From Octopus vulgaris (lineage: Eukaryota): DNA of 64,000 bases. The notes beneath the pieces were generated by a model, which had not been told where the DNA came from, searched no databases, and worked only from the letters and a program-made list of their open reading frames with translations. Every line of letters starts with the position of its first letter. Positions within the stretch are counted from its first letter, which is position 1. A program made the translations under genes and the position numbers. Location: the NCBI GenBank assembly GCA_951406725.2, contig OX597821.1:39308001-39372000 (forward strand). The letters run 5' to 3'. Positions 995 through 32,453 of this stretch are shown piece after piece.

Positions 995-2726
995 TTCATT
1001 TATTTAGTTATTTATTTTGTAATTTGTGAAGAATAACCTCACTAGCTCCAGGAATCCAAAGAGACAATCAGTAATTCACCGAATTTCTGATGATGTTGAG
1101 GGTGACGAAGGAACATCTTTCACCAGATGATTAAAGGTCACAGGATTTTCCCTGATGTTAATAGCCTTTGCCAACTGACAGAGAAAGGTATATGCATGGA
1201 TCTTCCTTTCAATCGCTCCTCCTTCTCCTCCCCCTCCTCTCATCATCACTTTTGTTTCTCCATGCTTGCATGGGGCATACGGATCTTGTCCAAAAGTGCA
1301 TCCATCTACTTGTCACATTCCTTTGTGAGGTTGACCATCCAGAGACCCACTTCCTATGCTTTTTCCTGTGTCTTTCTTTGAATATATATTCTGTGGATAT
1401 ATGTCTGGCCATGGAGGAATTTCCTTTTGCTTGGAAACAAGTAAGACTTAGTGACAGCTGTAGAAATCTGCCTCATCAAACTCCATTTAACCTGTGCAAG
1501 CATGGAAAAAGGGGATGTTAAAAGGATAATGATCACGTATCATTTGACTATAATGTGTCCTTATTTTCTTTCAGGTGGTACTCTCACCTTCAGCTGAGAG
1601 GTCCTTGTCTCCACTGGTGCTGGTGTCACATAAAAAAAAAGCACCCATACTAGTGTCATGTTAAAAGCTCTTGTGCTGGGTCACATGAAAAGCACCCATG
1701 TTGAAGCCATGTAAAATGTACCTGTGTTGGTGCCACATGAACAGCACTCGGTACCCTTTGTAAAATGGTTGGCATTAGGAAGGGCCTCCAGCCATAGAAA
1801 CCATGCCAAGATGGACAATTGGATCCTGGTGTCAAAATGTCCAACCCATATCAGCATGGGAAATGGATGTTAAATGATGATGATAGTAGCGTTTGATTTG
1901 GTTTCTATTTGTATCAAATTGAGTAAGTATATGCGTTCTCTTTCATTTGTTGCAGAAAGAAATAACCTCGACATCATTTTGCCAGAAAGAATGTTCAAAG
2001 AGAAGAATAAACGAAATTGTTGAAATGGATAACCAACTGGTGTACTCAGCGTGGATACCCAGGTCTGTTGAGAAGGTTTTAGTTATAAAAATAGATATTT
2101 CCTCATTATTTTCCTGTAAATCTAATTCACAAAATATTATCAAATGTGTTTTATAGATTTAACTGAATTTTCATTTTGTTTTTTTCCACCTGAGATTATA
2201 TAAAACCTTCTGAGATAAAAATCAGCTAAGTAAGTGGTGGTGGTGGTGGTGGGAGGCGGGGTGGCAGTGGCAGGGGTGGTGGTGGTAAGAAAATGGATGT
2301 TAAAGTCACTGAATTAAATTCTGATGCTGATTGTGATGCTTATGATGATTGTGATGATGATGATGATGAAATGATAAATCTTGACAATGGTCACTGTTTC
2401 CATAGTGTGTAGTATATCTTTTCCCTAATAGCTGAGTGACATATTGCATAGGTTCCTGTAAGAAGAATTAATCAAACGTTTATAAATTGCTACATTTCAC
2501 AAGATTAATCATTTGTATTGTTCTTGAAATACTTTGCAAATATATCAGCAGAAACACAGACAGAACTGTTGAACTTTGAAGATTTACTTCCCAATTTCAA
2601 GAAAAAAATTACAACAACAACAACAATAATAATGTCATTTTATTTTAAATATAAAACAAGCAAACCAAGTTTTGCTAGATTTTTGTGTGCATTATTTGTG
2701 TATTGTGTTTGTTTGTGTGTGTGTGT

Positions 2727-2763
<37 letters not shown>

Positions 2764-3435
2764 GTTTATGTGTGTGTGTGGGGGTATATAAGAGTTGAGT
2801 TGAATAATAAAAAGTAAACTATTTTTCAGGATACTAAGATAAATTGTTTTGAATATTTTAGTCTAATATTAATGAAGGGACAATGATAAAAATCAATTTA
2901 TTTTCTTGGTTTCAGATAGATAAACATTTTAGAATATTTTTACAATTTCTTTTCACAATCATCATCATCATCGTCGTCGTCACCACCATCATCGTCATCA
3001 TCATCATCACCATCAGTATCGATACTATATGATAACCACATCAGACTACCAACAACACATAAAATGTCATATATAGTAGTAAGCAAAGTCACTTTACCTT
3101 CTAAGTTCAAATCCCTGCAGGTCTGATCAAATTTGTACTCTTTACCAAAATATGTCATTTGGCACCCCAAATACACCCTGGCTCTCACACTCAGGCAATA
3201 CACTCCATATATGCACCACATGAAAGCCAGTTGGGTTTTTCTGTAACACATAACTGAGACAAATGATGAAACTCAGCCATATCAATGGGGGGAAAAAAAG
3301 AATTTTAAGCATGATGATGATGATGATGAGGTTTTTTAATACAAAATAAAGAGCAGCAGACTAATTCTGTACTTATTTGGGTTTGTTCCTCTATATTGGT
3401 CAACTAAGTTGATTTTGTCTCTGTCAATATACATG

Positions 3436-3475
<40 letters not shown>

Positions 3476-3477
<2 letters not shown>

Positions 3478-3711
3478 GGGTGGCCCAAAAGTGGGTTTAC
3501 AGTTATCATGTAGGCACTTTAAATTTATTTTAAAACATTTTATTACATTTAAATTTCTATCTTACAAACTGAAATGGGAGCTTGACAAAGTTAACTAATT
3601 TAGCATAGAATAATGGTTTCATTTTTTTTTTTTAATTAAGATCTACACTGTTAATATATGAATGTGAAAGAGATATTTGAATAACTGTAAACCTAGTTTT
3701 GGGCCACCCTG
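3476..3711. mobile_element. Tc1/mariner-type MITE
   Basis: About 31-bp TIRs CAGGGTGGCCCAAAA.T.GGTTTACAGTTAT; TA flanks. Confidence 0.88.
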
Positions 3712-3759
3712 TATGTATATATATATATATTATATTATATTGTATTATATTATATATAT

Positions 3760-3925
3760 AAATAGTTGAAATTTACAGAAAAACAAAAGGCAAAGTCAGG
3801 TGTATAAACAACAAACAGGTGTATTAGTTTGACACTCAGGAAGGTGAGAAAGTCTTTTACGTCTGGAGTCTACACTCTTCAACAGAAAGGAACATGAGGA
3901 AATGAACAGAGAATAAAATAAGAGA

Positions 3926-3928
<3 letters not shown>
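3760..3928 (-). mobile_element. Diverged copy of the ~180-bp TA-associated element
   Basis: Similar to 11250-11400 (tattag...ctcaggaa...aaagtcttttacgt...ctcttc..cagaaagg); (TA)n on both sides. Confidence 0.7.
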
Positions 3929-4006
<78 letters not shown>

Positions 4007-5309
4007 GCGAGCTGGCAATACACATACACTCACACACACACATACACACCTGTGTGAATCTCCTGCCAGATAAGTCTATGTTTTCTGTTTTGTTCAATCA
4101 CTAAAATGTAACTCCTCGTCATTTGTTTTACACCTCTCTCTCCCTCTCTCTCCTTCTCTCTCTCTCTCTCCATCACTCTCTCTCCTTCTCTCTCTCCCTC
4201 TGTCCTTACCTAATGGATTCTCCTGTTGGCTTTAATTTCCCATCCGATATATTATATAGATTAGCCACATTATGAAGCTTTGCACTCATTCTCTCCATCA
4301 AGTATTCCCTGCAATTCTTAGTCCTAACACCTATTCCTCCATCACTCCTCTGTCTATGGCACCACTCAGCTCCTGTTATTCCTTAAGAGCAGAATTAGTA
4401 TTACATTCCCCAGCCCTTTCTGTACACTATTAGTTCCCTCCTCCTTCCCTTGAATGACTTCCATCCTTCATCAGTATCATTCCTTCCCACACTATTTTCT
4501 CCAAGTACCTCCCACCATCCTTTTTTGTGCCTTCAGTAATCCTCCTTTCTCTTCTGCTATGCCTCATCTTTAACACCTCTCATATTTGCTATCAGTTTCA
4601 CCGCTCTCTCAAATCCACTTACTACAGTCACCCTTATGTACCTCTACATCTCCCTTCTCACCACTCTTATTAAACCTTGCACACCATCCTCCTACTTTCT
4701 GATCTATCCTCCCTCCCGAGTCACTTCTGTCTCTCTCACCTTATCAATTCTCTATGCTGATATATCCCATCACCTCCACCCTTACCCATCACTCACTACA
4801 TTTACCTCTAATCCCATCTCTAACTACCTGTTGCTCTCCTCTGGTCGACTATCTGCATCCTCTCTTATGCTTACCTTTTTGTACATTGAGACTTCACTGT
4901 GGCATCCCACCATTACCATTTTTATCATCTTCCCAGCTACTCTCACCTACCCTAATAAAATTCAGGGTAGCCATGTATCTTTTCCATATAAAAGTACCTA
5001 TACTTATACTTCTATCATATTTTTAACTTCTCAAGACCTGGCATAAAGCCTCCTTTAAATCTTACTACCACCTGCCACAAGCTTAGTCAAGGGGGCTTTT
5101 TACTTTTCTTTCCTTGTCTTAGTGTTCTCATTGTGTTGGAGTCCTGAAAATAATACCCAGTACACACTGTAAAATGTTTGGGATTAGGAAGGGGATTTAG
5201 CTTTAGAAATCATGCCAGAACAGACACTGGAGCTTGATGTAGCTCTGTGGCATTGCCAGGTCTTGTCAAACCAACCAACCCATGCCTGCATGGAAAACAT
5301 GCATGCACT

Positions 5310-6110
5310 TATTTCGACGTTGATATCACCTGAACAAATTTTCTCACCATCCACTTCCAACTCTTAGACACTCTTCATTGATTCACACAAACATTGCCAG
5401 GCTCAGAATCCTGTAACATCACACATTAGGGAACTGTTGCTGCTTTTGATACCACCAGAGAGCAGAATTAGGAAGAGGCGAATAACCAGGTTTAATCCAT
5501 TCTACAACCTAGAAGTTACTACAGACCTAACAAAGAATTTCTTGATTATTATGACATTATTTCCCACTCACACACAGATACCATTATAGTTATTTAAACC
5601 ACACAAAATTAAGATATTCTTGTACATAGCTTCCCTGATCAAAGCCTACCACCACAAATACACCTATATGCAATGACCATTGCATCAGTTAACCAGTTGC
5701 TGTCAAGTCCATTCATGTAAATAGATTTTTGATAGTGGTTCCATCCTCTTTAAAAGCCATATTCTAACAAATGTAACATCTTCAGATGATATTGCAAGGA
5801 ATATTATGGGTTTAATAGAGGACACTTTGAAGGGTTACTTCCTCCAACATGTAAATGTTATATTGAAAAAAACCTGGAAAAAATTCCATGTCTGTCTTAA
5901 AACATCTGGAAACTCAATGACAAGAGTCTAACATAGTACATTGATAAGGGGGGAGAGGGGGAGGGCAAGTCATATTTTAAAGGCATGGAACAGCAGACCA
6001 AACTTAACTGATAAATTTCAAATCATGAAGCATCCTGAGACATCTTTTAACTGGTAAAAAAGTGTTTGGGTGTTGCCAGAGGAAGAGAATTTATTTCTCT
6101 GACACACTGA
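5310..6110 (+). mobile_element. Decayed Penelope-like element, linker / GIY-YIG endonuclease region
   Basis: From 5470 translates RKRRITRFNPFYNLEVTTDLTKNFLIIMTLFP, resembling the PLE motif RKRNIIWFNPPYS..VKTNIGK.FL..HFP; later NIMGLIEDTLKGYFLQH resembles YIG.TE..FK.R..QH. Many stops and frameshifts. Confidence 0.6.
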
Positions 6111-6162
6111 AATCAATGCTAAAACATGGCATCTAAAAATCAGCTCCTCCAAGTGATTGCCT

Positions 6163-6390
6163 TTAACCCTTTAGCATTGAAGCCGGCCATATCCGGCCTA
6201 AATATTTTACCTCCTTTTTGTTCAAACCCAGTCAGATCCAGCCTCTTACTCTATCCTACAATATTATTCCCAAAGTAAAGAGTCACATCGCAGAAATCTC
6301 ACAGCTATGAGATAATGCATGATTAATTCAATGCAATGTGAATAAACAAGCATCACATTTGGTAGAATAATGTGAATACTAATGAGTTAT
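6163..6390. mobile_element. TTAA-type (piggyBac-like) MITE
   Basis: Starts TTAACCCTTTAGCATT; ends AATACTAATGAGTTA, an imperfect reverse complement. Confidence 0.55.
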
Positions 6391-7529
6391 AGATAACTGC
6401 GAGTCATTGGCCATTGCAGCACACTAATTCAAACAATAGTAGCCTTTTGGATCACAATAAGCTTGATAAATGAGGCCAACCTTACATGTACACCAATGAA
6501 CATTACAGCTTCCATCGACACTCAAAATATCATTGGAAAGATCACATGAGTAACTTAGTAACTTACTGAATCTATTCCAATTGTTATAAACTCTGCTTCA
6601 TATAATGAGTGCTTTCTTCCATTTGTACACAAAAACAAGAGTACTCACATGCACACACATATATATATATACACAAACATGTGTATTTGTGTATGTGGTT
6701 ACACATAAACATATGTATCCTGTTGCTGATTAGACAAAGACAAATAGATTTTTAATTGTTGATAAAGGAAATGTTTGATAAACATGTCTAACCACGACAC
6801 AAAATCTCAAATAGGTGTTTAAAAAGTGTCATATTATATTCAAGCGTATGACGACAACATCTTTTAAAACAATCTTGCTTTTAAACACATTTCACTGAGG
6901 TTTTTTTGTTTCTATTGTCACTACTGCTGTGTATTATTAGTGTCATTATTTCAACAAAATATTAAGAATATATCAAACTAGTGAAAAAAAAAATAGTTTA
7001 GAAGAAAAATAAAAAATATAATGAAATAAAACAGCTAAAAATATGTACTTAAATTATGTTTTTACATTTAATTTTGCTGTCAGCAGCAAGAATGACATTA
7101 AATTTTATATAAAACCACAAAAATTTTTCAAACATATTACCAAGCAGCAATAAATATTCTAGTGACAACTGTGATGGAATGGTAGTTGTTTGTGTTATTA
7201 CAATGAAACGCCTGATATTTGTTCGTTAGCTGTAATTATTGTTTAGATCGTATAAATACTATTATCATTATAATCTATCTCACTAACACACTGTTTATAT
7301 ATTTGTTGTTGTCACAGCCAGTGTTTGCTCTAATATCTTTGTTCACTCCCTTCCTCCTATTGATGATGCTGGTGATGGGCAATATTATTATTATTATTAA
7401 TTCTTCTCCCAGCTGAATTCTGATGAGAAGCTTGTTTATGTGAATGTATGTGTGTAACCATGTGTACGTTTGATTGGAAACTAAATTGCTTAGTATGTTT
7501 CTCATATATTTGTGTTTATATAAGTTACA

Positions 7530-8070
7530 TTTTCATATGGTCAGTCTTAAGACACACCTCTTCATGTCTCTTGCCCATCCACTGGCATTTAAAATTTCCA
7601 TAGAAGTGGAAGCTAGGCACCAAATATAACAGTGGAAGAGATATCTATGATGTATAAACTGGCTCACCAGTTTCGACATACTTTTTCAAGTTTAGATCAC
7701 ATAAGTTTTTCATATGGTCAGTCTGAAGACACACCTCTTCATGTCTCTTGCCCATCCGTTGGCATTTAAAATTTCCATAGAAGTGGAAGCTAGGCACCAA
7801 ATATAACAGCGGAAGAGATATCTATGATGTATGAACTGGCTCACCAGTTTAGACATACTTTTTCAAGTTTAGATCACATAAGTTTTTCATATGGTCAGTC
7901 TGAAGACACACCTCTTCATGTCTCTTGCCCATCCTCTGGCATTTAAAATTTCCATAGAAGTGGAAGCTAGGCACCAAATATAACAGTGGAAGAGATATCT
8001 ATAATGTATGAACTGGCTCACCAGTGTCTTAGACATACTTTTTCAAGTTTAGATCACATAAGTTTTTCAT
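7530..8070. repeat. Tandem repeat, 177-bp unit x3
   Basis: catatggtcagtc at 7534, 7711 and 7888; copies about 97% identical. Confidence 0.95.
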
Positions 8071-8623
8071 TTCGGTGCAGTATATATATATTACATTATA
8101 CAGATGTGGAATAATTTAGCCTGGTGTGGTCCTTCTCTTTCTAAACTTCACATTTTCAAAGGATCACAAAGTTATGAAGTGTTCATCATATTTATGGTAG
8201 TAATCTTTATGACAATGGGATTTAGCACTTTATAATACTTATTTACAATGTGGTCAATAACATTAGTGAAGTTTGGGGTTAAAGATCTGAATTTAGGGCA
8301 CAAAATCAACATAAAAAAAGCCTCTCTCTCTCATATATATATATATGAGGAGTGTCTATTAAATTCACTCACAGGACTTTGGTTGACCTGGGGCTTAAAG
8401 GGAAGACATTGGACCAATATGCTGTGCCATGGGATTGAACCATGACTGAAATCATGTGACTGGATAGAAAACATCTTAACCACACAGTTATGTCTGCACC
8501 TATGGCTCTGTGTGTATGTGTGTGTGTGTGTGTGCCTATGTGTGTATATATGTATGTGTGTTTTTATATATATATATATGTGCATATGTATGTAATACAT
8601 GCAAGCACACACACACAAGCATG

Positions 8624-8654
<31 letters not shown>

Positions 8655-9464
8655 GTATGTATGAATATGTAAACTCATATTAAATTAGAACTTCAAAATA
8701 GTAAATCTTTAAAAATACCATGTAATCTACAAGGATTAATATAATAGAATACAATAAAAAACTGCGATAAAAATAATATTAGCTTTCATTTCTCTAAAGA
8801 TCAAACATTTAAGTTTGAATGAATGTAAAAGCCTGGTAAATTTGTATCATATTTTATAATGAATATAATGAATTAATTAAATAAAATCTGGAAGCTAGCC
8901 ATAACCTTTGTATTCTGGTCTTGGCTGCTACTCTCTCTTTGTGCTACATCACTTCACTCAGTCGAGTCGGGCCGTTTTGTGAAATTTTATTATGATGACT
9001 TGAAATCACCCGTTTTAAACAGAAATATCTGTTGATTTAGATTTAGTGATGTATGTTTTAATATTTTGTTTTTTTTTGTTCTATGATTCTTGTTTAGAAT
9101 GGTTGAGTGGTAGGAATCCCTGCAGCAGTTTTTATTTAATAACTACATCCGCCTACATTCTGAGTTCAAATCTACGTAGAACTGACTTTGTCTTTTATCT
9201 TTCCAGTCGTTTTTTTCCAAAAGACAGTTCTTTATTCAAATAACTACATCCTTCCACTAAATTTGCTGTATTAAATAATCTAAATATGTTTATTGTATGC
9301 ATCATCTTTTTTCTTAATTTCAAATTCAACCTTCTAATCCCTTCAAATATTATGTAGAAATGATTATCTCCCTTGCACTAACTAATCAACAGGTTGCAAT
9401 ACAAATTGTTTTAATGTCTGTTTTTTTGTTATAATGTTACGGGTTATATATTTCTACTGCTTAA

Positions 9465-9695
9465 AGGCAGCAAGCTGGCAGACACATTAGCACGCTGGGC
9501 AAAATGCTTAGTGGTATTTCGTCTGCCATTACATTCTGAGTTCAAATTCCGCCGAGGTCGACTTTGCCTTTCATCCTTTCGGGGTCAATAAATAAAGTAC
9601 CAGTTTCGCACTGGGGTCGATGTAATCAACTTAATCTGTTTGTCTGTCCTTGTTTGTCCCCTATATTTTTAGCCCCTTGTGGGCAATAAAGAAAT
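9465..9695 (+). mobile_element. SINE family A (tRNA-like head; core ggtcgactttgcctttcatcctttcggggtc)
   Basis: B-box gagttcaaattcc; about 16-bp imperfect TSD (atatttctactgctta / atacttctcctgctta). Further degenerate copies near 26190, 33420, 38365, 55810, 62470, 62650 and 62900. Confidence 0.85.
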
Positions 9696-10065
9696 ATATA
9701 TACTTCTCCTGCTTATGCACTACAACATCTAACTCCAACTGTAAGATTTGACCATTTGGGCTTATAATTGCATTCCATGCCTGAATATCCTTTTTCACAC
9801 ATTTCTCACTAACTGCATATATCAAAATTTCTCAAAAAATATACGCAGTATGCTGGTATTTCTAGGTGTGTGACTTTACAAAAGTTAATGAAGAGGTAAA
9901 ATTTCAGATCCTAATGTCTTCATCTGAGTCAGTTGTATTCTCGCAATTCCATAAAGCTTAATATTATTGAATCACAGGGTTTGTATCCAATAGTGAGCTC
10001 TACTGAGATAATTAAGGTATTCAATCTGAGGTTGAATATTGGAGCAAAGTTTGGACTACTTTCTC

Positions 10066-10321
10066 AATGTCCTACAGAAAAATTAAACTAACAAACATTT
10101 ACTAATTACAGCTATTAATTACAAACAATTACAAACTATTCTTGTTTGTAGTTGTACTTTACTATTGTACCTATTTACAGTGAGATATACTGAGCCAGAA
10201 TGTCCTACAGAAAAATTAAACTAACAAACATTTACTAATTACAGCTATTAATTACAAACTATTCTTGTTTGTCGTTGTACTTTACCATTGTACCTATTTA
10301 CAATGAGATATACTAAGCCAG
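10066..10321. repeat. Tandem duplication, ~125-133 bp x2
   Basis: aatgtcctacagaaaaattaaactaac... occurs at about 10066 and about 10199. Confidence 0.92.
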
Positions 10322-10988
10322 CAAATCTTGGTCATAGTCAAGAGTGCAAATCAGATAACTAAACCCGAACCAGTGACTGTTAGCCTGTTAGTCACCCATT
10401 TTACAGTATCAACCAATTTTATCTCCAATCTTGAAATAAATATGCATAAGTAATTAAAATGTGATATTGTAAAAACACTTCAAAAATATGTCTTAATGAC
10501 ACTAATTAGATTTTTCTTTACTAAAAGATTTCCAGGTAATCAATTTATTTGTTATATTTTAGATTCTTATTTCACTTGAAGTGATTATCAAGTGTTATTC
10601 CAACAGTAAACATCTCCAAATATTTGATGAACATTTGACAGGCTCTTTTTGTTTGCTTAATTTTTATTTTTGCTTGAATCTTTAAAACAATCAATTGAAA
10701 TTAAGCTCAACAAATGATTCTGTTTGATAATTAATATGAAGAGAAATATGAAATAGATTTTAAAATAGTCTGTCATGTTTCACAAGCAATAAGAAATTCT
10801 GTACAGAAAGAGGTGATTTAATAACTACCTTGATGTGTGTGTGTGTGTCTGGTGGTGGCAGCGAGTATAAAGCCATAGCTGTGAATTTTACAAACAGTTT
10901 TGGAAGGTGAGAACAGAATGCTTTTAGATTTTGAGGTAACAAACATTGAAGAAAACATTGCTCTATCTCTCTCTCTCTCTTTCTCTCT

Positions 10989-11196
10989 CGATCGTTAGCC
11001 ACTACACACATTTTTTTTCTCTCCTTGTTTTCTGTGTCCCTTTCTGTAGAAGAGCGTAGGCTTGAAACGTAAAAGACTTTCTATTCCTGAGCATTATACT
11101 AATACATCTGTTTGTTTTGTACACCACCTGTCTTCGTCTTTTGTTGTTTTTTTTGTAAATCCTCCCTATGTATATATATATATGTGTGTGTGTGTG

Positions 11197-11251
<55 letters not shown>

Positions 11252-11420
11252 AGAGTTTACGAAAAAACAAAAGACAAAGACAGGTGGTGTACAAAACAAA
11301 CAGATGTATTAGTATAACGCTCAGGAATAGAAAAAGTCTTTTATGTTTCGAGCCTATGCTCTTCGACAGAAAGGGACACAGAAAAAAAACAAGGAGAGAA
11401 AAAATGTGTGTAGTGGCTAG
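10989..11420. mobile_element. Tail-to-tail inverted pair of a ~180-bp microsatellite-associated element with a hammerhead-like motif
   Basis: About 10995-11170 (+) and about 11245-11420 (-) are near reverse complements around a (TA)n/(TG)n tract. Motif CTTT-CTGTAGA-A-GAGCgtagGCTT-GAAA-CG-TA-AAAG at 11040-11075. Confidence 0.75.
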
Positions 11421-11426
11421 TGCAAA

Positions 11427-11739
11427 TTGAGGGAGTGGAATGGGTAAAATCCAGGCTACAAATGTCTCTTAGCTAGCTGATCTTTTGATATAACAATTAC
11501 TCCATGAGACATGCTCAGTTGAGCAAATATCAGGTTGAAAATGCCCTAATTATATGAAAGTTACATTGTTGCTTGGAATTCCGAGTTAACTCACTGTAGA
11601 TGTGAGTTGAAGCAACAATGCAGCCTTCATGTAATGAAGGTATTCTTGGCCCCTGATGATTAGATCTGTTGGGCTCCCATTCCAGAGGCTCGGCTAAGAA
11701 ACCTATGCAGCCTGGATTTCACCCGTTACACTTCTTTAA
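11427..11739. mobile_element. MITE with ~50-bp imperfect TIRs (Kolobok-like ends)
   Basis: agtggaatgggtaaaatccaggctaca versus the reverse complement of tgcagcctggatttcacccgttacact; TTAA at the right end. Confidence 0.55.
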
Positions 11740-11987
11740 TTTGGATTTTTATTTGCATTCATAGCAACTCTGGTTGCTAATTGTGTGGTATACAGAAACA
11801 TTCAGCTCATCAAATTCCCTCATAACTTTGACCTTGTTTGAGGCCCCACCATGAAGGGTTCTAGTGGAACAACTTGATGCCAGGACTTATTTTTTTAAAG
11901 TCTGCTCCTCATTTTATCGCTCTCTTCCACTGAACCACTAAGTTATGGGAATAGAAACAGACCAACATAAGTTGTCAAGTAATGCAC

Positions 11988-12130
11988 AAACAAACAAATG
12001 TATTAGTATAACGCTCAGGAATAGAAAAAGTCTTTTACGTTGCAAGCCTACGCTCTTCTACAGAAAGGGACACAGAAAAAACAAGGAGAGAAAAAAAATG
12101 TGTGTAGTAGCTAACGATCTATCATGGCAT
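11988..12130 (-). mobile_element. Copy of the ~180-bp TA-associated element
   Basis: Near-identical to 11295-11420. Confidence 0.75.
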
Positions 12131-12154
12131 CTCATACATATACATACATACATA

Positions 12155-12192
<38 letters not shown>

Positions 12193-12193
<1 letters not shown>

Positions 12194-12410
12194 GAGAGGG
12201 TGCTGAAAATTTCCTGACTTTGGGTAAAAGAAACTAGAGGAGGATCAATTAATTATGATTTTAGTAAACATATTCCCCTCTCAGATTTACACACTTATTG
12301 CAGCTGTCCTTCTGTTTTTCTAAGCCTTGTAAAAGAATTCAGAAGGTTGAGCCTCCAACCAGGCTTTTTACAATACCCTTAAAGCCAGCAACTTACCAAC
12401 ACCTTCTTGT
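12193..12410. mobile_element. Degenerate mariner-type MITE
   Basis: Left end tgagagggtgctgaaaatttcctgacttt; right end aaagccagcaacttaccaacaccttcttg; a related end occurs at 35238-35270. Confidence 0.55.
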
Positions 12411-13836
12411 GTATATTCATATATGTGTGCTTGGTTCTACAGCGTTCTACATAGTTTCTGTCTCCTAATTTAACTCACTGGTCATTGGTCAACCTGCAAT
12501 AAAAGTAGACAGTAACTTGACCAATTTTGTGTACCCTGCGACTGAACTTGAAACCACATAGTTGCAAACTTAACCTCTTAAACACACAGCCTTACCCGTG
12601 CTCACACACATGTGCACACAACACAAAAATATATCTTTTATCTATTACTTGTTTCAGTCTTTACGTTGCAGCCATGATGATTTTTATCCCATGTCCCTTA
12701 AATTATTCCTCTATTCTTCACTGCCTCTCCCGCGAAGGTTTCTCTCAGTATCTCTCTTCTTGCTCATCTATCTTCTGCCATCTTATTGACTACATCCTAA
12801 ACAAGGTTTCCATCTCATTCATAAATGTCTCCAAACCACTCTATCATGACAATCTTATAAAATTATCAATCAGTGTCACATTTACAATCTCTCTCTCTTT
12901 TTCTCTCTCTCTCTCTTTCTCCCTCTCTCTCTCCCATTCCCCATCATTGGTCACATGAGCTTCACACATGGTTTCTAATATTCCACAAGGCTTTCGGTTC
13001 AAAAGCAACATAGTTACCATCAGATACAGGGTTCTTGAAGTATATACAGTGTGATTCTTAAACTCTTTTGATATTAATATAAACCAGCTAAGAACTGAGG
13101 TTAGTTAAGCTTTATTAAAGTGTATCTAACTCCTACTGTCTTTCTGTCCATTCTTTACGCCTCCACAAATTCCAGTAAAATATGTTGTCAGCAACCTATT
13201 GAAACAATGTTTTGCACAAACTTAAAAATGGAAAAATTCCTGGCATTCATGCTATTCTGGCAGAAGTGCCAAAATTAGAGGAAACAGAATGCTAGGTCTT
13301 CTGTTGCACAGTGTTTGATATAATTTGGGAGGACTTGGTCCAATTTTTCAAGATTTGAGGAATGCATTGCAGAACGTGCTTTGCAAAGGAAAAAGTGGTA
13401 AAATCATGGAATAATGTTTGAGGCATTTCCTTCTTCAGTGTTGTAGGGACACTATGGAGCACAATTAAGACAAATTTCCAAATACTATCTATTCTTTCAT
13501 GATTTCAGGAAGAACATGCTCTGTAATTGTTGGAGAATACCAAAAGCTCCCTTTTAATTAGTGTTTGTGGTGATGTCAAACAAGACGCTATAATGGATCC
13601 TACTTCATTTTCAAGACATTTCACAATAATGATTTTCAATGACCTTCAATGACTGCCGTAAAGGTAGATACCACAACTCAAGTGGAAAGCTATCTCACTC
13701 AATATACTTCTGAATGAAGTGTATTAGTTGGGAACAGAGTAGTAATAAGAAAAGAGATGACAAAGGAATAACTGTTTGTTCCTTTCTCATTTCTTTCCTT
13801 ATAATACATACACACGCACACATACACACATATGTA

Positions 13837-13885
<49 letters not shown>

Positions 13886-13980
13886 CATTTTTTCATAATG
13901 AGATAAAAAACCAAGGCAGTGTAGCTCACTGACACCATTACCTCTCACGACCTATATATACGACACTCCTGTTACAACCT

Positions 13981-14024
13981 GGGACCTTGAAGACTGCTAT
14001 AATGCAAGAAAGTATACTAGTCCC
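13981..14024 (+). ncRNA. Degenerate minimal type I hammerhead motif in a TA-embedded element (about 13884-14088)
   Basis: GGGAC-CTTGAAGA-cTGCtataatGCAa-GAAA-GtataC-TA-GTCCC: 5-bp stem I, palindromic AGTATACT, one extra base in the core. Confidence 0.6.
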
Positions 14025-14613
14025 TTAATATTTTATATTCAGCATTTCATCTATTCAATAAGACAATCCATACTTCATTTCATTTTACTATATATATATA
14101 TATTATTTATACTATATATTCTATATTCTACATTAATATTATAAAGAATATAAATAAAACATAAAAAACAGGCAGAGTTGGAATTTCTTTGAATAATATA
14201 TATATATATATATATATGTATGTATATACACACACAGATATATATATAACATTTGTGGCTGTATGTGTGTGTATCTGTTTGCAAAGATTCATTTACACAA
14301 ACAACATAATGATGAGTTTCTGCTTTGATGACATGGCTTGTCAAATTAATTATACCACTTTAAATGCTAATAAAGACAATTCTATCTTAATAAAGCTACT
14401 TGAAGTTTTATGACTGTGCTTTCTCAAAGTCAGCTTATCTTCTTTCAAGTTTAAATCCCTGAACAAATATTTCATAAACGTCCTAAAAAGTTTGGAAATA
14501 TTAAATAAAGAAAATTATACATAACACCAAATGCACACAAACAGTCAGGCAGACACATACACAAACATAACATGTATTAGTAGTGTGCGTGTGTATATGT
14601 GTGTTTGTGTCTA

Positions 14614-14664
<51 letters not shown>

Positions 14665-15871
14665 ATACAAATATACATATATATATATACATATGCAAAT
14701 TTATGTGTGTACTTATATGTGTATGTGTGTGTGTAAATTTATGTATGTGTATAAGGGTAGGATTCTTTTAGTTTGAGTTTATTTTTTTTTAGTTTTTTTG
14801 AGCAATAAAAACTTATTGTTTAATTTTTCTAACTAATTCAGTTGAATTTACCAAATAAATGCATGTTGTTTTGATTTTCATAAATTTTTCTCTCAAATTT
14901 CCCTTGTATTACAGTTTTTTCACAAAATTATTATTTTTTTGCTGAAACTTAAGACTTTAAACTGAAATGACTTTTCATACTTTTATTATTATTTATGTGG
15001 GTTTTTATTTATTTTTTATTATATATTTCCTTCTTAAATGATTTTTTTTTTAACTTTCATTTCACCCTTTCTTCTGCTTAAACTGTCTTATCAGATTTTA
15101 CATATTTTTTGTCAACATTACAATGTTTCATGTGAATTGCTATTGTTTTAATTCATATACTGTCATGGCTTAACAATTTTTTTCTTCTATACCTACTAAA
15201 ATTATATTTCTGAACAGTTATTTTTATTTACCATCCAATTTTATTTCTATATTTATTTTTTATTTTGAAACAAGTAAGAAATCTTTCTCCAAAAAAAAAA
15301 AAAAGAAGAAAAATTCCCCAAAAAACAAAGTTTTAAACTATGAAACTTATAGAGCCATAAATAATTTTAAAATGAAATTGTCTGTGCATTGTATTTTATT
15401 TGATGGTATGGCATAGATTTGTTATTTTGCTTTGTATAAATATTTACAATGATACTTTTTTTGGTTTAATAGTTATACATGTAGATAATATAGCATGATA
15501 GTATATTTCACACACAGAAACACACGCACACATGCACATATAAAGAGATAGATAAGTAGACAGACAGACAGACGAGTAGATAGATAGATAAATACAGGAA
15601 TGGATGGATAGACTGACAGACAGATAGGTAGACAAACAGACTGACAGACATATAGCTAGACAGATAGATAGACAGATAGGTAGATAGACAGAGGTACTGG
15701 CATGGCTTCACTATGAAGTTTGCTTTACAGCCATATGGTTTTTAGTTCATTCCTACTGTATGGAATTTGGGTGAGTATCATTTATTATAGCCCTGGGCCA
15801 ACTAATGCTTTGGGAACAAATCTGGCTGGCAAAAACTACACAACACCTATCATATATATATATATATATGA

Positions 15872-16170
15872 AAGTGCGTGGCTTAGTGGTTAGGGGCATT
15901 CGGCTCATGGTCATAAGGTTGTGAGTTCAATTCCCAGTGGCGTGTTGTGTCCTTGAGCAAGACACTTTATTTCACATTGCTCCAGTCCACTCAACTGGCA
16001 AAAAAGAGCCAGCCTTGATACACACTATGTCACGCCGAATCTCCCTGAGAACTACGTTAAGGGTACACGTGTATGTGGATTGCTCAGCCACTTACATGTT
16101 AATTTCATGAGCAAGCTGTTCCGTTGATCATATCAGCTGGGACCCTCGTCGTCGCAACCAATAGAGTGCT
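15872..16170 (+). mobile_element. tRNA-derived SINE sharing the family C tail
   Basis: tggcttagtggttagg...gagttcaattccc...gtgtccttgagcaagacactt; tail matches 32085-32240 reverse-complemented. Confidence 0.8.
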
Positions 16171-16171
16171 C

Positions 16172-16206
<35 letters not shown>

Positions 16207-16493
16207 TAACAATAAAGGGTGAAATTAATTAATTTGGAATAATTATTAATTACACCAAGTAGATTTCGGCATGTAAAAGCCTCATTCGAGGAAAATTTAA
16301 GTAATACTAAGCAATTAAGGGTTTAGCAATGAATTGCCTCACCACACACCGAATTTAGAAATAGCAGTCAAAGAGTTATAGCTATTCTTTCTACTAAAAG
16401 GGAGATCTCAGTAAAAACACAGCACTTGAAAGGCAAACACAGACAGGTAAGAGAGAATGAAATGACGGCAATCTATCATACAATTTTAAGTCA

Positions 16494-16584
16494 CCTACGG
16501 ACGTACGTTTCGAAATCAAGTTTTAGGAAAGCATAAGAATTAGATAATTCTACCTTACCCAACTTCTTTTCTCATCAGCGTAGG
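16494..16584 (-). ncRNA. Type I hammerhead ribozyme (inverted identical copy)
   Basis: Reverse complement of 17072-17162. Confidence 0.9.
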
Positions 16585-17071
16585 ATACTACAATTATGAA
16601 TAATTGTATATTAAATTTTGAGATACTAGAAGGCATCATCTCAACTCAGTGTCAGAGCGAGCTAAAGCATTACCAGTACCACGAAAGAATAGCTATAACT
16701 ATTTGACTGCTATTTCTAAATTCGGTGTGTGGTGAGGCAATTCGTTGCTAAACCCTTAATTGCTTAGTATTACTTAAATTTTCCTCGAATGAGGCTTTTA
16801 CATGCCGAAATCTACTTGGTGTAATTAATAATTATTCCAAATTAATTAATTTCACCCTTTATTGTTACTGATAACCATATTTTATCCCAGTAAATGACCA
16901 CAGCATCTTGTCTTGGCTACACGCGGGTGGAAAGGGGCTGGGGACACAAACTTTCATTCACACTTTGAATTTCGTGGTACTGGTAATGCTTTAGCTCGCT
17001 CTGACACTGAGTTGAGATGATGCCTTCTAGTATCTCAAAATTTAATATACAATTATTCATAATTGTAGTAT

Positions 17072-17162
17072 CCTACGCTGATGAGAAAAGAAGTTGGGTA
17101 AGGTAGAATTATCTAATTCTTATGCTTTCCTAAAACTTGATTTCGAAACGTACGTCCGTAGG
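17072..17162 (+). ncRNA. Type I hammerhead ribozyme (intact core)
   Basis: Stem I CCTACG (17072-77) / CGTAGG (17157-62); core CTGATGA (17078-84); long stem II G17085...C17144; GAAA (17145-48); stem III within palindrome ACGTACGT; GTC triplet, predicted cleavage after C17156. Confidence 0.9.
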
Positions 17163-17349
17163 TGACTTAAAATTGTATGATAGATTGCCGTCATTTCATT
17201 CTCTCTTACCTGTCTGTGTTTGCCTTTCAAGTGCTGTGTTTTTACTGAGATCTCCCTTTTAGTAGAAAGAATAGCTATAACTCTTTGACTGCTATTTCTA
17301 AATTCGGTGTGTGGTGAGGCAATTCGTTGCTAAACCCTTAATTGCTTAG

Positions 17350-17387
<38 letters not shown>

Positions 17388-17404
17388 TATATTCATATAT
17401 ACTG

Positions 17405-17437
<33 letters not shown>

Positions 17438-17964
17438 GCATATATACATACATACATAAATACATACATGCATACATACATATATATGTTCACACATATA
17501 TGATGTATGTGTATAAGTTTCTACTGAACATTTCCTGTATAATTTGATGTTGTGCCTTTCCAAACAGCCTTACTCTATCCTAAATATACTCTTTGTTTTT
17601 CCATTCCACTGCACAATAACAAGCACTCTCCATGCTTTTGGAAGTTGTCAGTGGATTTTCATAATCTGGATATCACATATCAAAATGAATTTCTGACCAA
17701 ACTCTTTCCGTTTTGTCTTGGACTTTCATGTACATGTATCTCTTGTTAAAAAAAAACAAAAACAAGGAGAAAAAAACAAAGAAGCATGCAATTGATTTAA
17801 AATATAGTTTCATTCTAGTATAGTTACAAGCTTAACCATGATATGGGTGTGTTTGCCAGTGGCAGTAGCTGCACAGGAGATGCTAAACTTGAGTTATGTG
17901 TCACTTGGTTACTTGCAATCTATTTTCCATGTTATACATCTCAAAGAATCAAATAACTTTGAAG

Positions 17965-18190
17965 ATAGGAAATAAAGCAAATGGATGCATGGTTGGATTC
18001 TAAAAATCTTTACATCAATCGTTTGAGAGATATTAATCTCATTTTATAAATCCCTTGTAAGAAGTCACTTAGAATACCGTCATCCCTTTCGGTTTCCATA
18101 GCAACACTTCAGAATATACAAAAATGTAGCATTAAATTCAAGCGTATGATGTGAAAAAAAGTCAAACTATTAAAACAGCTTTCAAATTTG
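17965..18190 (+). mobile_element. Old CR1-group LINE C-terminal fragment
   Basis: FYKSLVRSHLEY resembles LYKSLVRPHLEY; preceded by a KAN..GWI-like segment. Confidence 0.6.
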
Positions 18191-18745
18191 GAATTTCAAA
18201 AATTTTCAAAGAATAAAAAGTTAATGAGAAGGGAAAAGGGAAAAAAGAAAGGATGATGTTTCATCTTATATTTTCTAAAGAGTTCGCTACTTCATTCAGT
18301 TTTAATATTAGATTTACAAAATTTTAAAACCTTAATATTTGTCCTAAAAACACAGAAGAGATAGCATTAAATATATTCTAAAGTCTTCCATGAAATGCTT
18401 CCTAAATGCTCAAGGAATAATGTATATTCCTTTAGATGCTTCTGATTGAAACAGCACATTAAATGGTCAAACTATTACTTTTAATTTTCCTTTTTTTTAT
18501 ACTGAGTTAGTCTCGTAATATCTTCCCGTCTGTCTCTTGACTAGACCAAATTTATTCTGTTTAATAACTTTTCATGAATTGAGACACCATTAGATGTTAA
18601 CATGAATAAAATTTTAGGTCATCGAAAATTCCCTGTTAACTATGAGCAACTTTGAGATTCAAAAAACATTTTAACTTTTTATTTATTTTAAGGATAACAA
18701 AATGAAGAGGAGGACCACACAAATCTTCATCTTTTTGTTGTTGTA

Positions 18746-19065
18746 TCATCATCATCATCCTTTAATGTCTGTTTTCCATGCTAGCATGGGTTGGACGGTT
18801 CGACCGGGGTCTGGGAAGCCAGGAAGCTGCACCAGGCTCCAGTCTGATCTGGCAGTGTTTCTACAGCTGGGTGCCCTTCCTAATGCCAACCACTCCATGA
18901 GTGTAGTGGGTGCTTTTTACGTGCCACCGGCACAGGGGCCAGAGGAGTCTGGCAAATGGCCACGATCAGTTGGTGCTTTTATGTGTCACTGACACGGACG
19001 CCAGTCAAGTGGCACTGGCATCTGCCACGTTAGGACGGTGCTTTTAATGTGTCACCGGCATGGGT
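18746..19065 (-). mobile_element. RTE 3'-end repeat (family D)
   Basis: Reverse complement of the RTE tail; near-identical to 24332-24642. Confidence 0.85.
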
Positions 19066-19559
19066 ATCTTAACTACAATTTCCATTGATTTTCATTTTGA
19101 TGTTGGTGTTAAAGAGCATAGAAGATTACATTCCTCATCATCATTGATTAGTTTTGACTATCACAGGTGTGAAGTGTGATTAAATAAAATAGAACAATCA
19201 GGAAGTAAAAAAGACTTTGGTTAAGTCTAAATTTATTGGTAGCTTATCACCATTTGAAATGTTTACAAAAAACGAAACCAAAAACAAAACAAAAGTTTAT
19301 TTTCATTGTTCTCAGAAATATTTGTTGGTTTGTCTGATGGTTTTAACTGAACTCTCCAATCATTAAATTCATGTGAAAGCTGCTGGGTATTCCACAGACA
19401 ATTTCTAAGCCGAATGAGTGAGACACAATGTGGTAATTTTCACTTACAGCACTTATCAACCCATTTGATTGCCTTCCACAATTTCTATCCACCAATTTTT
19501 GCACAACACATCTTCTGGTTTCATTATATCATCACATCTATATCTAATAACGGGCTCTC

Positions 19560-19935
19560 TCAAAATCACCTGGATCTTTTTCAAGATGGTATTTATTGGT
19601 GACGTCTGATACCACTTGATAGCAGACACCATCTTATTCTGGTTCCTATAAAACCCTCCCATCCAACTTCTACAGGAAAGTGTCCGGCATTCCAATTTGT
19701 ATCTACATAGTCTCCCAGTTAAATCTCATAAAACTTCTTTCCTAACCTGAGCTGCATCTATATTGTCTTCAGGTGGAACAGTTAATTCAACAAGGTGTAC
19801 AATCCTCATACCTATTTCCATATCAGGCTTCTCCCATGTTGGTACTGGAAAGCCACATTCACACACTACACGATCTGCTGCAACCCTAACCCAAACTCCA
19901 TCCCAGTTCTCATCATTCAAAGCTTTCTCCTTCTG
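19560..19935 (-). mobile_element. Decayed restriction-like-endonuclease (RLE) non-LTR retrotransposon fragment (Hero/NeSL-like)
   Basis: KPDMEIGMRIVHLVELTVPPEDNIDAAQVRK followed by HFPVEVGWEGFIG matches the PD...ELTVPWE...A.ERK..KY...PVEVG.RGF RLE signature. Confidence 0.75.
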
Positions 19936-20611
19936 TTTCTGACCTTGATGATCACTATTTACTGCCAGCCTTTTGCAATATCTTGCCACCATTGATCCAG
20001 CTGACAAAACACTGGGCATTAAGATGGGCTTCCAGCCCTAGAAACCATGCAAAAATTGGCATTGGAGCTTGATACAGTCCTGCAGCACTTCAGTCAGAAT
20101 GTTCAACCTATGCCATCATGGAAAAGCGATGTTAACTGCAGTTTACATCAGACAACTGACTTTTTCTTAAACCCAACCATCCTCCTCATCCTTCTGATCT
20201 CATTGCTTTGTGTTCGAATCTTCTCTTCGATCATCTCAGCAAATGTACCTCTCAGTAAGAAATGACTCAGACTCTGACAACCCATCTAACCCATGCCAGC
20301 ATAGAAAGGAAATGTAAAGTGACAATGAGATGATATATTTATCTATTTACACACATGCACCCTCCCTACACACAGATGCACACACACACATACATATATA
20401 TAAGAGATAATGGTGTCATTGAGACCCAAAGGTTTCAGGTAATGCTGAATAAGTGCTATAGACAGACCATAGTTAAGTTCCAAATTCGGTAATATTGCGA
20501 ATAAAGGGTTCAACGTTGGTTCTAAGTCAGTGTGTATATATAAGATCTTTTTGCATAATAAGATAAAAAAAAACAAGGCTGTGTAGATATTAGAGCATTT
20601 ATAGATAGAAG

Positions 20612-32080: not shown

Positions 32081-32453
32081 TCGTGGCACTCCGTTGGTTA
32101 TGACAGCAAGGGTTCCAGTTGATCCGATCAACAGAACAGCCTGCTTGTGAAATTAACGTGCAAGTGGCTGAGCACTCCACAGACATGTGTACCCTTAATG
32201 CAGTTCTTGAAGGAGGTTCAACGTGATGCAGAGTGTGACAAGGCTGCCCCTTTGAAATACAGGTACAAGAGAAACAGGAAGAAAGAGTGAGAGGAAGTTG
32301 TGGTGAAAGAGTACAGCAGGGTTTGCCACCACCTCCTGCCAGGGTCTCGTGGAGCTTTAGGTGTTTTCGCTCATTAACACTTACAACACCTGGTCTGGGA
32401 ATCGAAACCGTGATCCTATGACAGCAAGTCTGCTTCCCTAACCACTGGGCCAT
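32081..32453 (-). mobile_element. SINE family C with a long tail
   Basis: Same head and body as 62041; tail shared with 15872-16170. Confidence 0.82.

Follow-up and report, generated by a model that had tools for sequence, protein, structure and literature searches.

A locus of the Octopus vulgaris genome, contained in the 64,000-nucleotide stretch that we analyzed (hereafter the window, to whose first letter coordinates refer), very probably represents a young insertion of a non-coding hammerhead repeat family that was copied into (TA)n by the reverse transcriptase (RT)–endonuclease of a Penelope-like element (PLE) acting in trans. By the criteria tested, the family classifies as a non-LTR retrozyme that behaves like a PLE terminus, and an autonomous PLE is excluded by the absence of an RT/GIY-YIG open reading frame (ORF).

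Anatomy of the insertion and its hammerhead motifs

The locus is flanked by (TA)n on both sides, between which an inverted arm (16201-16686) is followed by a forward arm (16683-17352). The arms, 486 nt and 670 nt in total length, respectively, meet head-to-head with a 4-nt overlap (16683-16686). With the unit numbered from u1 = 16683, the following features were delineated.

16683..17264, plus strand: non-coding unit of 582 nt (u1-u582) that forms the first pass of the right arm and begins where this arm is 5'-truncated
17265..17352, plus strand: second pass of the right arm (u1-88), whose short 3' end (S site, u88) abuts (TA)n
16201..16686, minus strand: left inverted arm (u288-582 + u1-191), whose long 3' end (L site, u191) abuts (TA)n
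16771..16873, plus strand: 103-nt 'tail' between the S and L sites
16683..16873, plus strand: conserved end module of ~190 nt with four predicted helices and both 3'-end sites, common to the sister families
17072..17162, plus strand: type I hammerhead motif with a minimal palindromic helix III, predicted to be cut after C17156 (u474)
16494..16584, minus strand: mirror hammerhead in the inverted arm, core at 16578, predicted to be cut after position 16500
16175..16203, no strand: (TA)n target, left side
17350..17372, no strand: right-hand (TA)n target, continuing into (CA)n

A previous sequence-only reading had described a non-coding 582-nt unit in tandem together with a 486-nt inverted copy, the copies differing at about two positions, and the aligned arms agree with this description. 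The second pass (17265-17352) departs from u1-88 only at u19, whereas the reverse complement of 16204-16686 matches u288-582 plus u1-188 without gaps and with two substitutions (u19, u62); blastn extended the left arm to 16201 (u191). Position u19 is A only in the first forward pass and C in 125/132 aligned pieces, and the u62 difference is a CpG change located in the inverted arm. The longest stop-free frame across the unit junction spans 69 aa, and the GC content of the unit is 36%. At the 3' joints of the window copy with (TA)n, TAT or ATA is common to both sides, and no target-site duplication is discernible at this insertion. The 'tandem junction' of the earlier reading is indeed crossed by the inverted arm at u582|u1, but it is merely the 5' truncation point of the right arm, as the fixed points are the two 3' ends.

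In the surroundings, a dispersed repeat at 15870-16175 ends inside the (TA)n tract that the retrozyme entered; it gave 27 blastn matches in 23 of about 220 records, with a second window copy at 32086-32253. It resembles a tRNA-derived SINE, but ARAGORN found no tRNA between 15000 and 18500. At 7530-8070 of the window a 177-bp unit is repeated three times in tandem, with 96% matched.

The window copy carries one hammerhead per arm. In the forward arm, helix I is formed by CCUACG/CGUAGG (17072-77/17157-62) and the core by CUGAUGA (17078-84) and GAAA (17145-48), with UC directly preceding the predicted cut at C17156. The helix II region of 60 nt is closed by GAAA/UUUC, and helix III consists of a single C-G pair with a palindromic GUAC loop (C-GUAC-G). 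A type I descriptor matched the window exactly twice, once in each arm, and had no match in 200 pair-shuffles. The earlier claim of a perfect type I hammerhead in each orientation therefore stands for the motif and its intact core, but 'perfect' was too strong in view of the one-pair helix III, the long helix II region, a hammerhead fold (-17.2) that lies 4.5 kcal/mol above the minimum free energy (MFE) structure (-21.7), and the outcome of the Rfam search that the same reading had proposed, which returned no hammerhead match either at the gathering score or at E<=10. Between two copies, the helix III palindrome is predicted to form a duplex of -11.2 kcal/mol, and such intermolecular pairing suggests a dimer mode of cleavage. 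The hammerhead is intact in 71/89 pieces.

Genomic family, the two 3' ends and their pairing

Searching the genome assembly (2.8 Gb, 227 contigs) with an exact 21-mer over the cut site, corresponding to the 3' half of the hammerhead, yielded 549 matches compared with 0 for the control; a first look with the unit gave 2379 candidates, of which the best 40 were scored. Two sets of insertions were sampled. Set 1 contains 67 distinct insertions from best-hit searches and is biased towards long and young copies. For set 2, the first 100 listed 21-mer sites were followed by position, and 60 loci not yet sampled were drawn from them; this set has no end-type bias, but each of its loci crosses the cut site by construction. 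Identity to the window unit in set 2 ranged from 75 to 99.7% with a mean of 92%, indicating a family that is old yet still recently active, so that 'very young', as the locus had been called, is apt for its recent mobility but not for the family as a whole.

The 3' ends were classified as short (u60-100, mode u88) or long (u175-200, mode u191). Of the set 1 insertions, 35 had two arms placed head-to-head, 30 of them long+short and 5 including an odd arm. The remaining 32 had one arm, which ended short in 21 cases, long in 8 and elsewhere in 3. For set 2 the corresponding numbers were 29 (22 long+short, 1 short+short, 6 with an odd arm) and 31 (25 short, 4 long, 2 other), the second arm of the nominal short+short pair being just a 32-nt piece. 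Two-armed insertions thus make up 64/127, of which 52/64 are long+short and none long+long. Mixed pairs account for 52/53 of those that can be classified, whereas independent site choice predicts at most half. The 3' ends adjoin TA-rich sequence in 98/102 (set 1) and 77/89 cases (set 2). Together with the 549 21-mer matches, the two fixed ends and the inverted arms support the earlier proposal of a recently mobile retrozyme, which is multi-copy and bears a Penelope-type insertion signature. The variable permutation points that it had also envisaged are not free, the 3' ends being fixed at two sites, neither of which is the ribozyme cut.

The 5' ends are variable, with only 2/94 in set 1 falling within u465-485, near the cut site. 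Linear cut monomers were considered as templates and rejected, as the expected pile-up of 5' ends at the cut site is absent. As a separate observation, 5' truncations in set 1 cluster at u555-u15 (17237-17264 plus 16683-16697; 27/94 arms compared to 6.9 expected); this cluster adjoins a 12-bp hairpin, is partly an effect of query choice and weaker in set 2, and possibly marks an RT pause or a transcript start.

The likeness between opposite arms of one insertion exceeds that between separate insertions about threefold. In set 1 opposite arms differ at 71/8365 columns (0.85%), compared with 2.5% between insertions, and are the closer pair in 30/31 cases; in set 2 the values are 1.4%, including one badly aligned locus, and 5.4%, with 20/20 closer. 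Rare variants were found in a single arm versus both arms 59 versus 28 times (set 1) and 53 versus 25 times (set 2), where the single-arm variants can be later mutations. In 14/30 (set 1) and 10/21 (set 2) long+short cases, the window locus included, neither arm is a substring of the other, implying that neither was copied from the other.

Seamless wrap-around beyond one unit (>582 nt) was found in 19/81 arms of set 2, and the cut site is crossed twice in 8/81 arms of this set and in 15/94 arms of set 1. The set 2 counts indicate either a circular template or a multimeric one that had not been cut. The circular or multimeric template claimed from the sequence alone is hence retained, but not for the reason given then, as an inverted arm across the junction is the normal Penelope layout and by itself no evidence for a circle. 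Tandem copies with consecutive hammerheads occur at L005 (2.5 units) and L032 (9.8 units). Sequencing runs containing the unit are indexed under five organism labels, none of them listed as RNA. Four runs under one label were compared with the unit, and contigs of three cover it and its wrap-around joint (30, 30 and 27 of 30 bins); that these three runs are RNA is a guess, and tandem DNA yields the same joint. Within the L032 array (L032:2298-8012), odd and even units alternate between variants in the manner of a dimeric higher-order repeat; a rolling-circle origin was considered for this array and is unsupported, the variants alternating imperfectly. At L031:1832-7089, a unit copy and a very long (TA)n tract are duplicated together with a 2.7-kb period.

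Related ends at 68–85% identity defined two sister families, B and C. Family B has a tandem unit of 561-562 nt and the same two ends as the window family, termed A. The full module was matched 281 times, in 12 clusters. The four module helices, as folded in the window copy, show 89% pairing across 12 sequences, compared to 36-44% for slid controls, and contain 5 pairs changed on both sides, a number reached by 11/500 shuffles; these predictions are suggestive of a conserved secondary structure. An ACCC motif closing a helix precedes each start site by about a dozen bases, and we infer that the ~190-nt end module is the element recognized by the RT. Family B carries CUGAUGA in 32/35 motifs (one being a family A copy) and helix I CUCUGAG/CUCGGG, and the distance from cut to short end, measured on one copy, is 196 nt, identical to family A. 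The strict hammerhead descriptor recovered only 2/30 family B loci and a relaxed one 21/30, the sole cause of the difference being another helix III loop in this family. In family C, UCGAUGA is found in 3/3 motifs.

Coding Penelope-like elements and alternative explanations

The genome contains several young coding PLE families, which we provisionally assign to the Hydra and Neptune types. The Hydra-type family PLE-A has at least 40 copies identical over 172 nt; its protein relatives are named from Argonauta and Octopus, and Pfam gave no match on two PLE-A frames. Like the retrozyme, the coding PLEs here have two end sites that meet (TA)n; as judged from their sequences, the tails measure about 148 and 70 nt for the Hydra type and about 37 nt for the Neptune type. 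The clade labels follow a comparison of motifs with those in the available text of PMC8557442 and are not tree-based; octopus Naiads are listed in the supplement of that paper. Among about 120 PLE loci from at least 7 families, we found no autonomous PLE with an end homologous to the unit, neither at 29 PLE-A loci, at 30 loci with GIY-YIG, most of which are Neptune-type and one of which is apparently a host gene, at 30 Hydra-type endonuclease loci nor at 29 of 30 Neptune-2 loci, those whose orientation could be assigned. These partner searches scored the best 40-150 of 1,000-20,000 candidates. Module matches at the sampled PLE loci are separate insertions in TA tracts.

Side by side with these, a Neptune-type family (L196, L201) shows many open frames of 781 aa and a 3' region in which ATTGGTC...TGATGACGT motifs recur, and the 3' region at L035, a Hydra-type PLE-A end, contains a hammerhead-like motif with UUGACGA for CUGAUGA and a ~148-nt tail. 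At L250:1737-3212, a unit arm stands head-to-head with a Hydra-type coding fragment, with a short TA run between them.

Two chimeras join the unit to coding PLEs. In the two-armed insertion L016:1310-3330 the unit is opposed by a Hydra-type PLE arm, each of the two having a long end, and the 5' end of the unit is joined by microhomology to a Hydra-type endonuclease piece. At L262:1450-3135, a candidate mixed partial tandem, the short end of the unit lies 4 nt upstream of a very young, 5'-truncated Neptune-type ORF; 20 other copies match this frame without any difference over 601 nt, and the unit arm is 99.7% identical to that of the window. The chimeras point to two different PLE clades, and either join could reflect a template switch or adjacent insertion into (TA)n targets that both use. 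Tail length (103 nt) and the (TA)n preference of Hydra elements tilt the choice of helper towards the Hydra type, which we consider slightly more probable than all others combined; a Neptune-type helper appears distinctly less probable and one of another kind least so. Coexisting PLE types have been reported without cross-mobilization (PMC3846280, in the text available).

The observations might also be explained if the unit were merely the pseudo-LTR (pLTR) of an autonomous Penelope outside the sampled loci, and its copies truncated ends and pLTR-pLTR tandems. All end features do match PLE termini (PMC8557442, PMC3846280), Xenopus retrozymes match PLE pLTRs (bioRxiv 10.64898/2026.07.22.740005), and the PLE searches reached only the best-scoring candidates noted above. 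We nevertheless judge this quite improbable. The sequence-only reading had named copies that are all termini of coding Penelopes as the case against itself, whereas 0/67 insertions of set 1 and 0/60 of set 2, hence 0/127, pass from the unit into shared sequence or into a coding sequence belonging to the insertion; the 5' flanks of 31 one-armed insertions have nothing in common, units A and B hold no coding remnant when compared to 145 PLE proteins and long frames, and the position-ordered arms that exceed one unit do so by seamless wrap-around. For head-to-head repeats of PLEs, a route to the inverted arm has been proposed that needs no second RNA-primed start, with the first cDNA or an antisense template serving for fold-back or self-priming (PMC3846280); short fold-back arms do occur, and one arm is contained in the other in 27/51 long+short cases. 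This route is unlikely, though a little less so than a plain pLTR, given that neither arm contains the other in the remaining 24/51 cases and that the outer ends fall at two fixed sites. Assemblies are known to have difficulties with the tandem and inverted structures of PLEs (PMC8557442), but an assembly artefact has a negligible chance of accounting for the inversion, as the window arms differ at two positions and the layout recurs at 64 loci with different inner junctions and rule-bound ends.

The most serious competitor, only somewhat short of an even chance, keeps the same element and helper, with the hammerhead as a passenger and uncut read-through tandem transcripts, in place of a circle, as templates. 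Uncut RNA is the main in vitro substrate of the anole PLE (PMC11167929), helix III is weak, the MFE structure is one other than the hammerhead fold, the L032 array alternates variants as DNA-level dimer amplification would, and family C spread despite its altered core. CCGAUGA replaces CUGAUGA in 14/89 (mostly from one array) and 9/59 hammerhead copies, which speaks against a circle as well. Against this reading, on the other hand, stand the core and helix I, which are mostly kept across copies while N7 varies (U/A/G), the functional-looking core of family B at identical 196-nt spacing, a circular fold of the unit more stable than its shuffles (z -3.7, 30 shuffles), and the many dispersed copies that are shorter than the arms they would have to template.

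Proposed mechanism and comparison with known systems

In the favored reading of trans-mobilization by a PLE, the PLE protein would bind the end module, the enzyme would nick both (TA)n strands, and reverse transcription would start internally at S (u88) on one strand and at L (u191) on the other. Both starts probably lie on one RNA, or on RNAs from one source copy; the likeness of opposite arms could alternatively stem from one source locus or from gene conversion. The cDNA crosses the ribozyme cut site and extends beyond a single unit, and two truncated cDNAs would then be joined 5' to 5', yielding head-to-head arms. An uncut tandem transcript and a cut-and-religated 582-nt circle appear about equally probable as template. 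In vitro, the anole PLE uses two adjacent internal RT start sites defining a tail, cleaves and extends both strands, has an RT predicted to be a dimer, and shows no reduced insertion with hammerhead mutants, so that cleavage is not needed there (PMC11167929); among Xenopus retrozymes, 8/9 were without cleavage (bioRxiv 10.64898/2026.07.22.740005). A more far-reaching scheme, tentative and on balance rather doubtful, is that a clan of ~560-600-nt ribozyme circles parasitizes Penelope RTs through a two-site landing module of which no autonomous homologue survives, with a dimeric RT priming both nicked (TA)n strands on one circle, one subunit per site, and the 196-nt spacing coupling ribozyme processing to priming. 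If so, each mirror-image insertion would record both subunits at work.

The octopus family shares with animal non-LTR retrozymes (PMC7229834; bioRxiv 10.64898/2026.07.22.740005) its non-coding, low-GC unit, the type I hammerhead, seamless tandems and a proposed mobilization by PLEs. Its one-pair palindromic helix III resembles that of axolotl HHR_Amex1 (PMC7229834), and its 582 nt fall within the 51-972 bp range of bioRxiv 10.64898/2026.07.22.740005 but above the 150-450 bp of the retrozymes in PMC7229834. Whereas the known animal retrozymes form arrays (PMC7229834; bioRxiv 10.64898/2026.07.22.740005), the octopus copies are mostly dispersed insertions of 0.5-2.5 units, with ends fixed at RT start sites, inverted arms and (TA)n targeting, none of which appears for retrozymes in the available portions of these two papers. 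The unit also differs from known animal retrozymes in having no matching autonomous pLTR at the sampled PLE loci.

Insertions of endonuclease-containing (EN+) PLEs show the same 5' truncation, head-to-head inverted arm, tail at one end and two internal start sites (PMC8557442, PMC3846280, PMC11167929), as well as a hammerhead near the 3' end and, for Hydra, Naiad and Neptune, a preference for (TA)n (PMC8557442). They encode, however, an RT/endonuclease ORF that the octopus unit lacks (PMC8557442), and their reported tails measure 30-40 nt rather than 103 nt (PMC8557442, PMC3846280, PMC11167929). The one-long-one-short rule was counted here over 64 octopus insertions, and the accessible text of the cited work holds no such count for PLEs. 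MRC1 and other non-autonomous Chlamys elements are likewise PLE parasites with multicopy head-to-tail insertions, but resemble their autonomous family at the 3' end and mostly lack hammerheads, in contrast to the octopus unit with its hammerhead and no similar-ended partner (PMC8557442, as far as its available text extends). The openly searchable literature, that is, outside Repbase, subscription papers and the supplements of the retrozyme papers, yielded no cephalopod retrozyme and no count of long+short pairing.

The element combines known features, as might be expected, in a host group that is new for them; its own contributions are a retrozyme with the footprint of the enzyme, a tail that is long and pairing that follows a strict rule. 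In the accessible text of PMC7229834 and bioRxiv 10.64898/2026.07.22.740005, the link between retrozymes and Penelope is argued from co-occurrence, shared hammerheads and pLTR homology; the octopus copies would bear the Penelope enzyme's own footprint, namely two internal start sites and an inverted arm. Both this link and the head-to-head repeats and tails of PLEs become testable in the existing in vitro assay, for which the family offers a non-coding substrate of 582 nt, its module of ~190 nt and natural products in the hundreds, and the genome several candidate RTs that are co-active.
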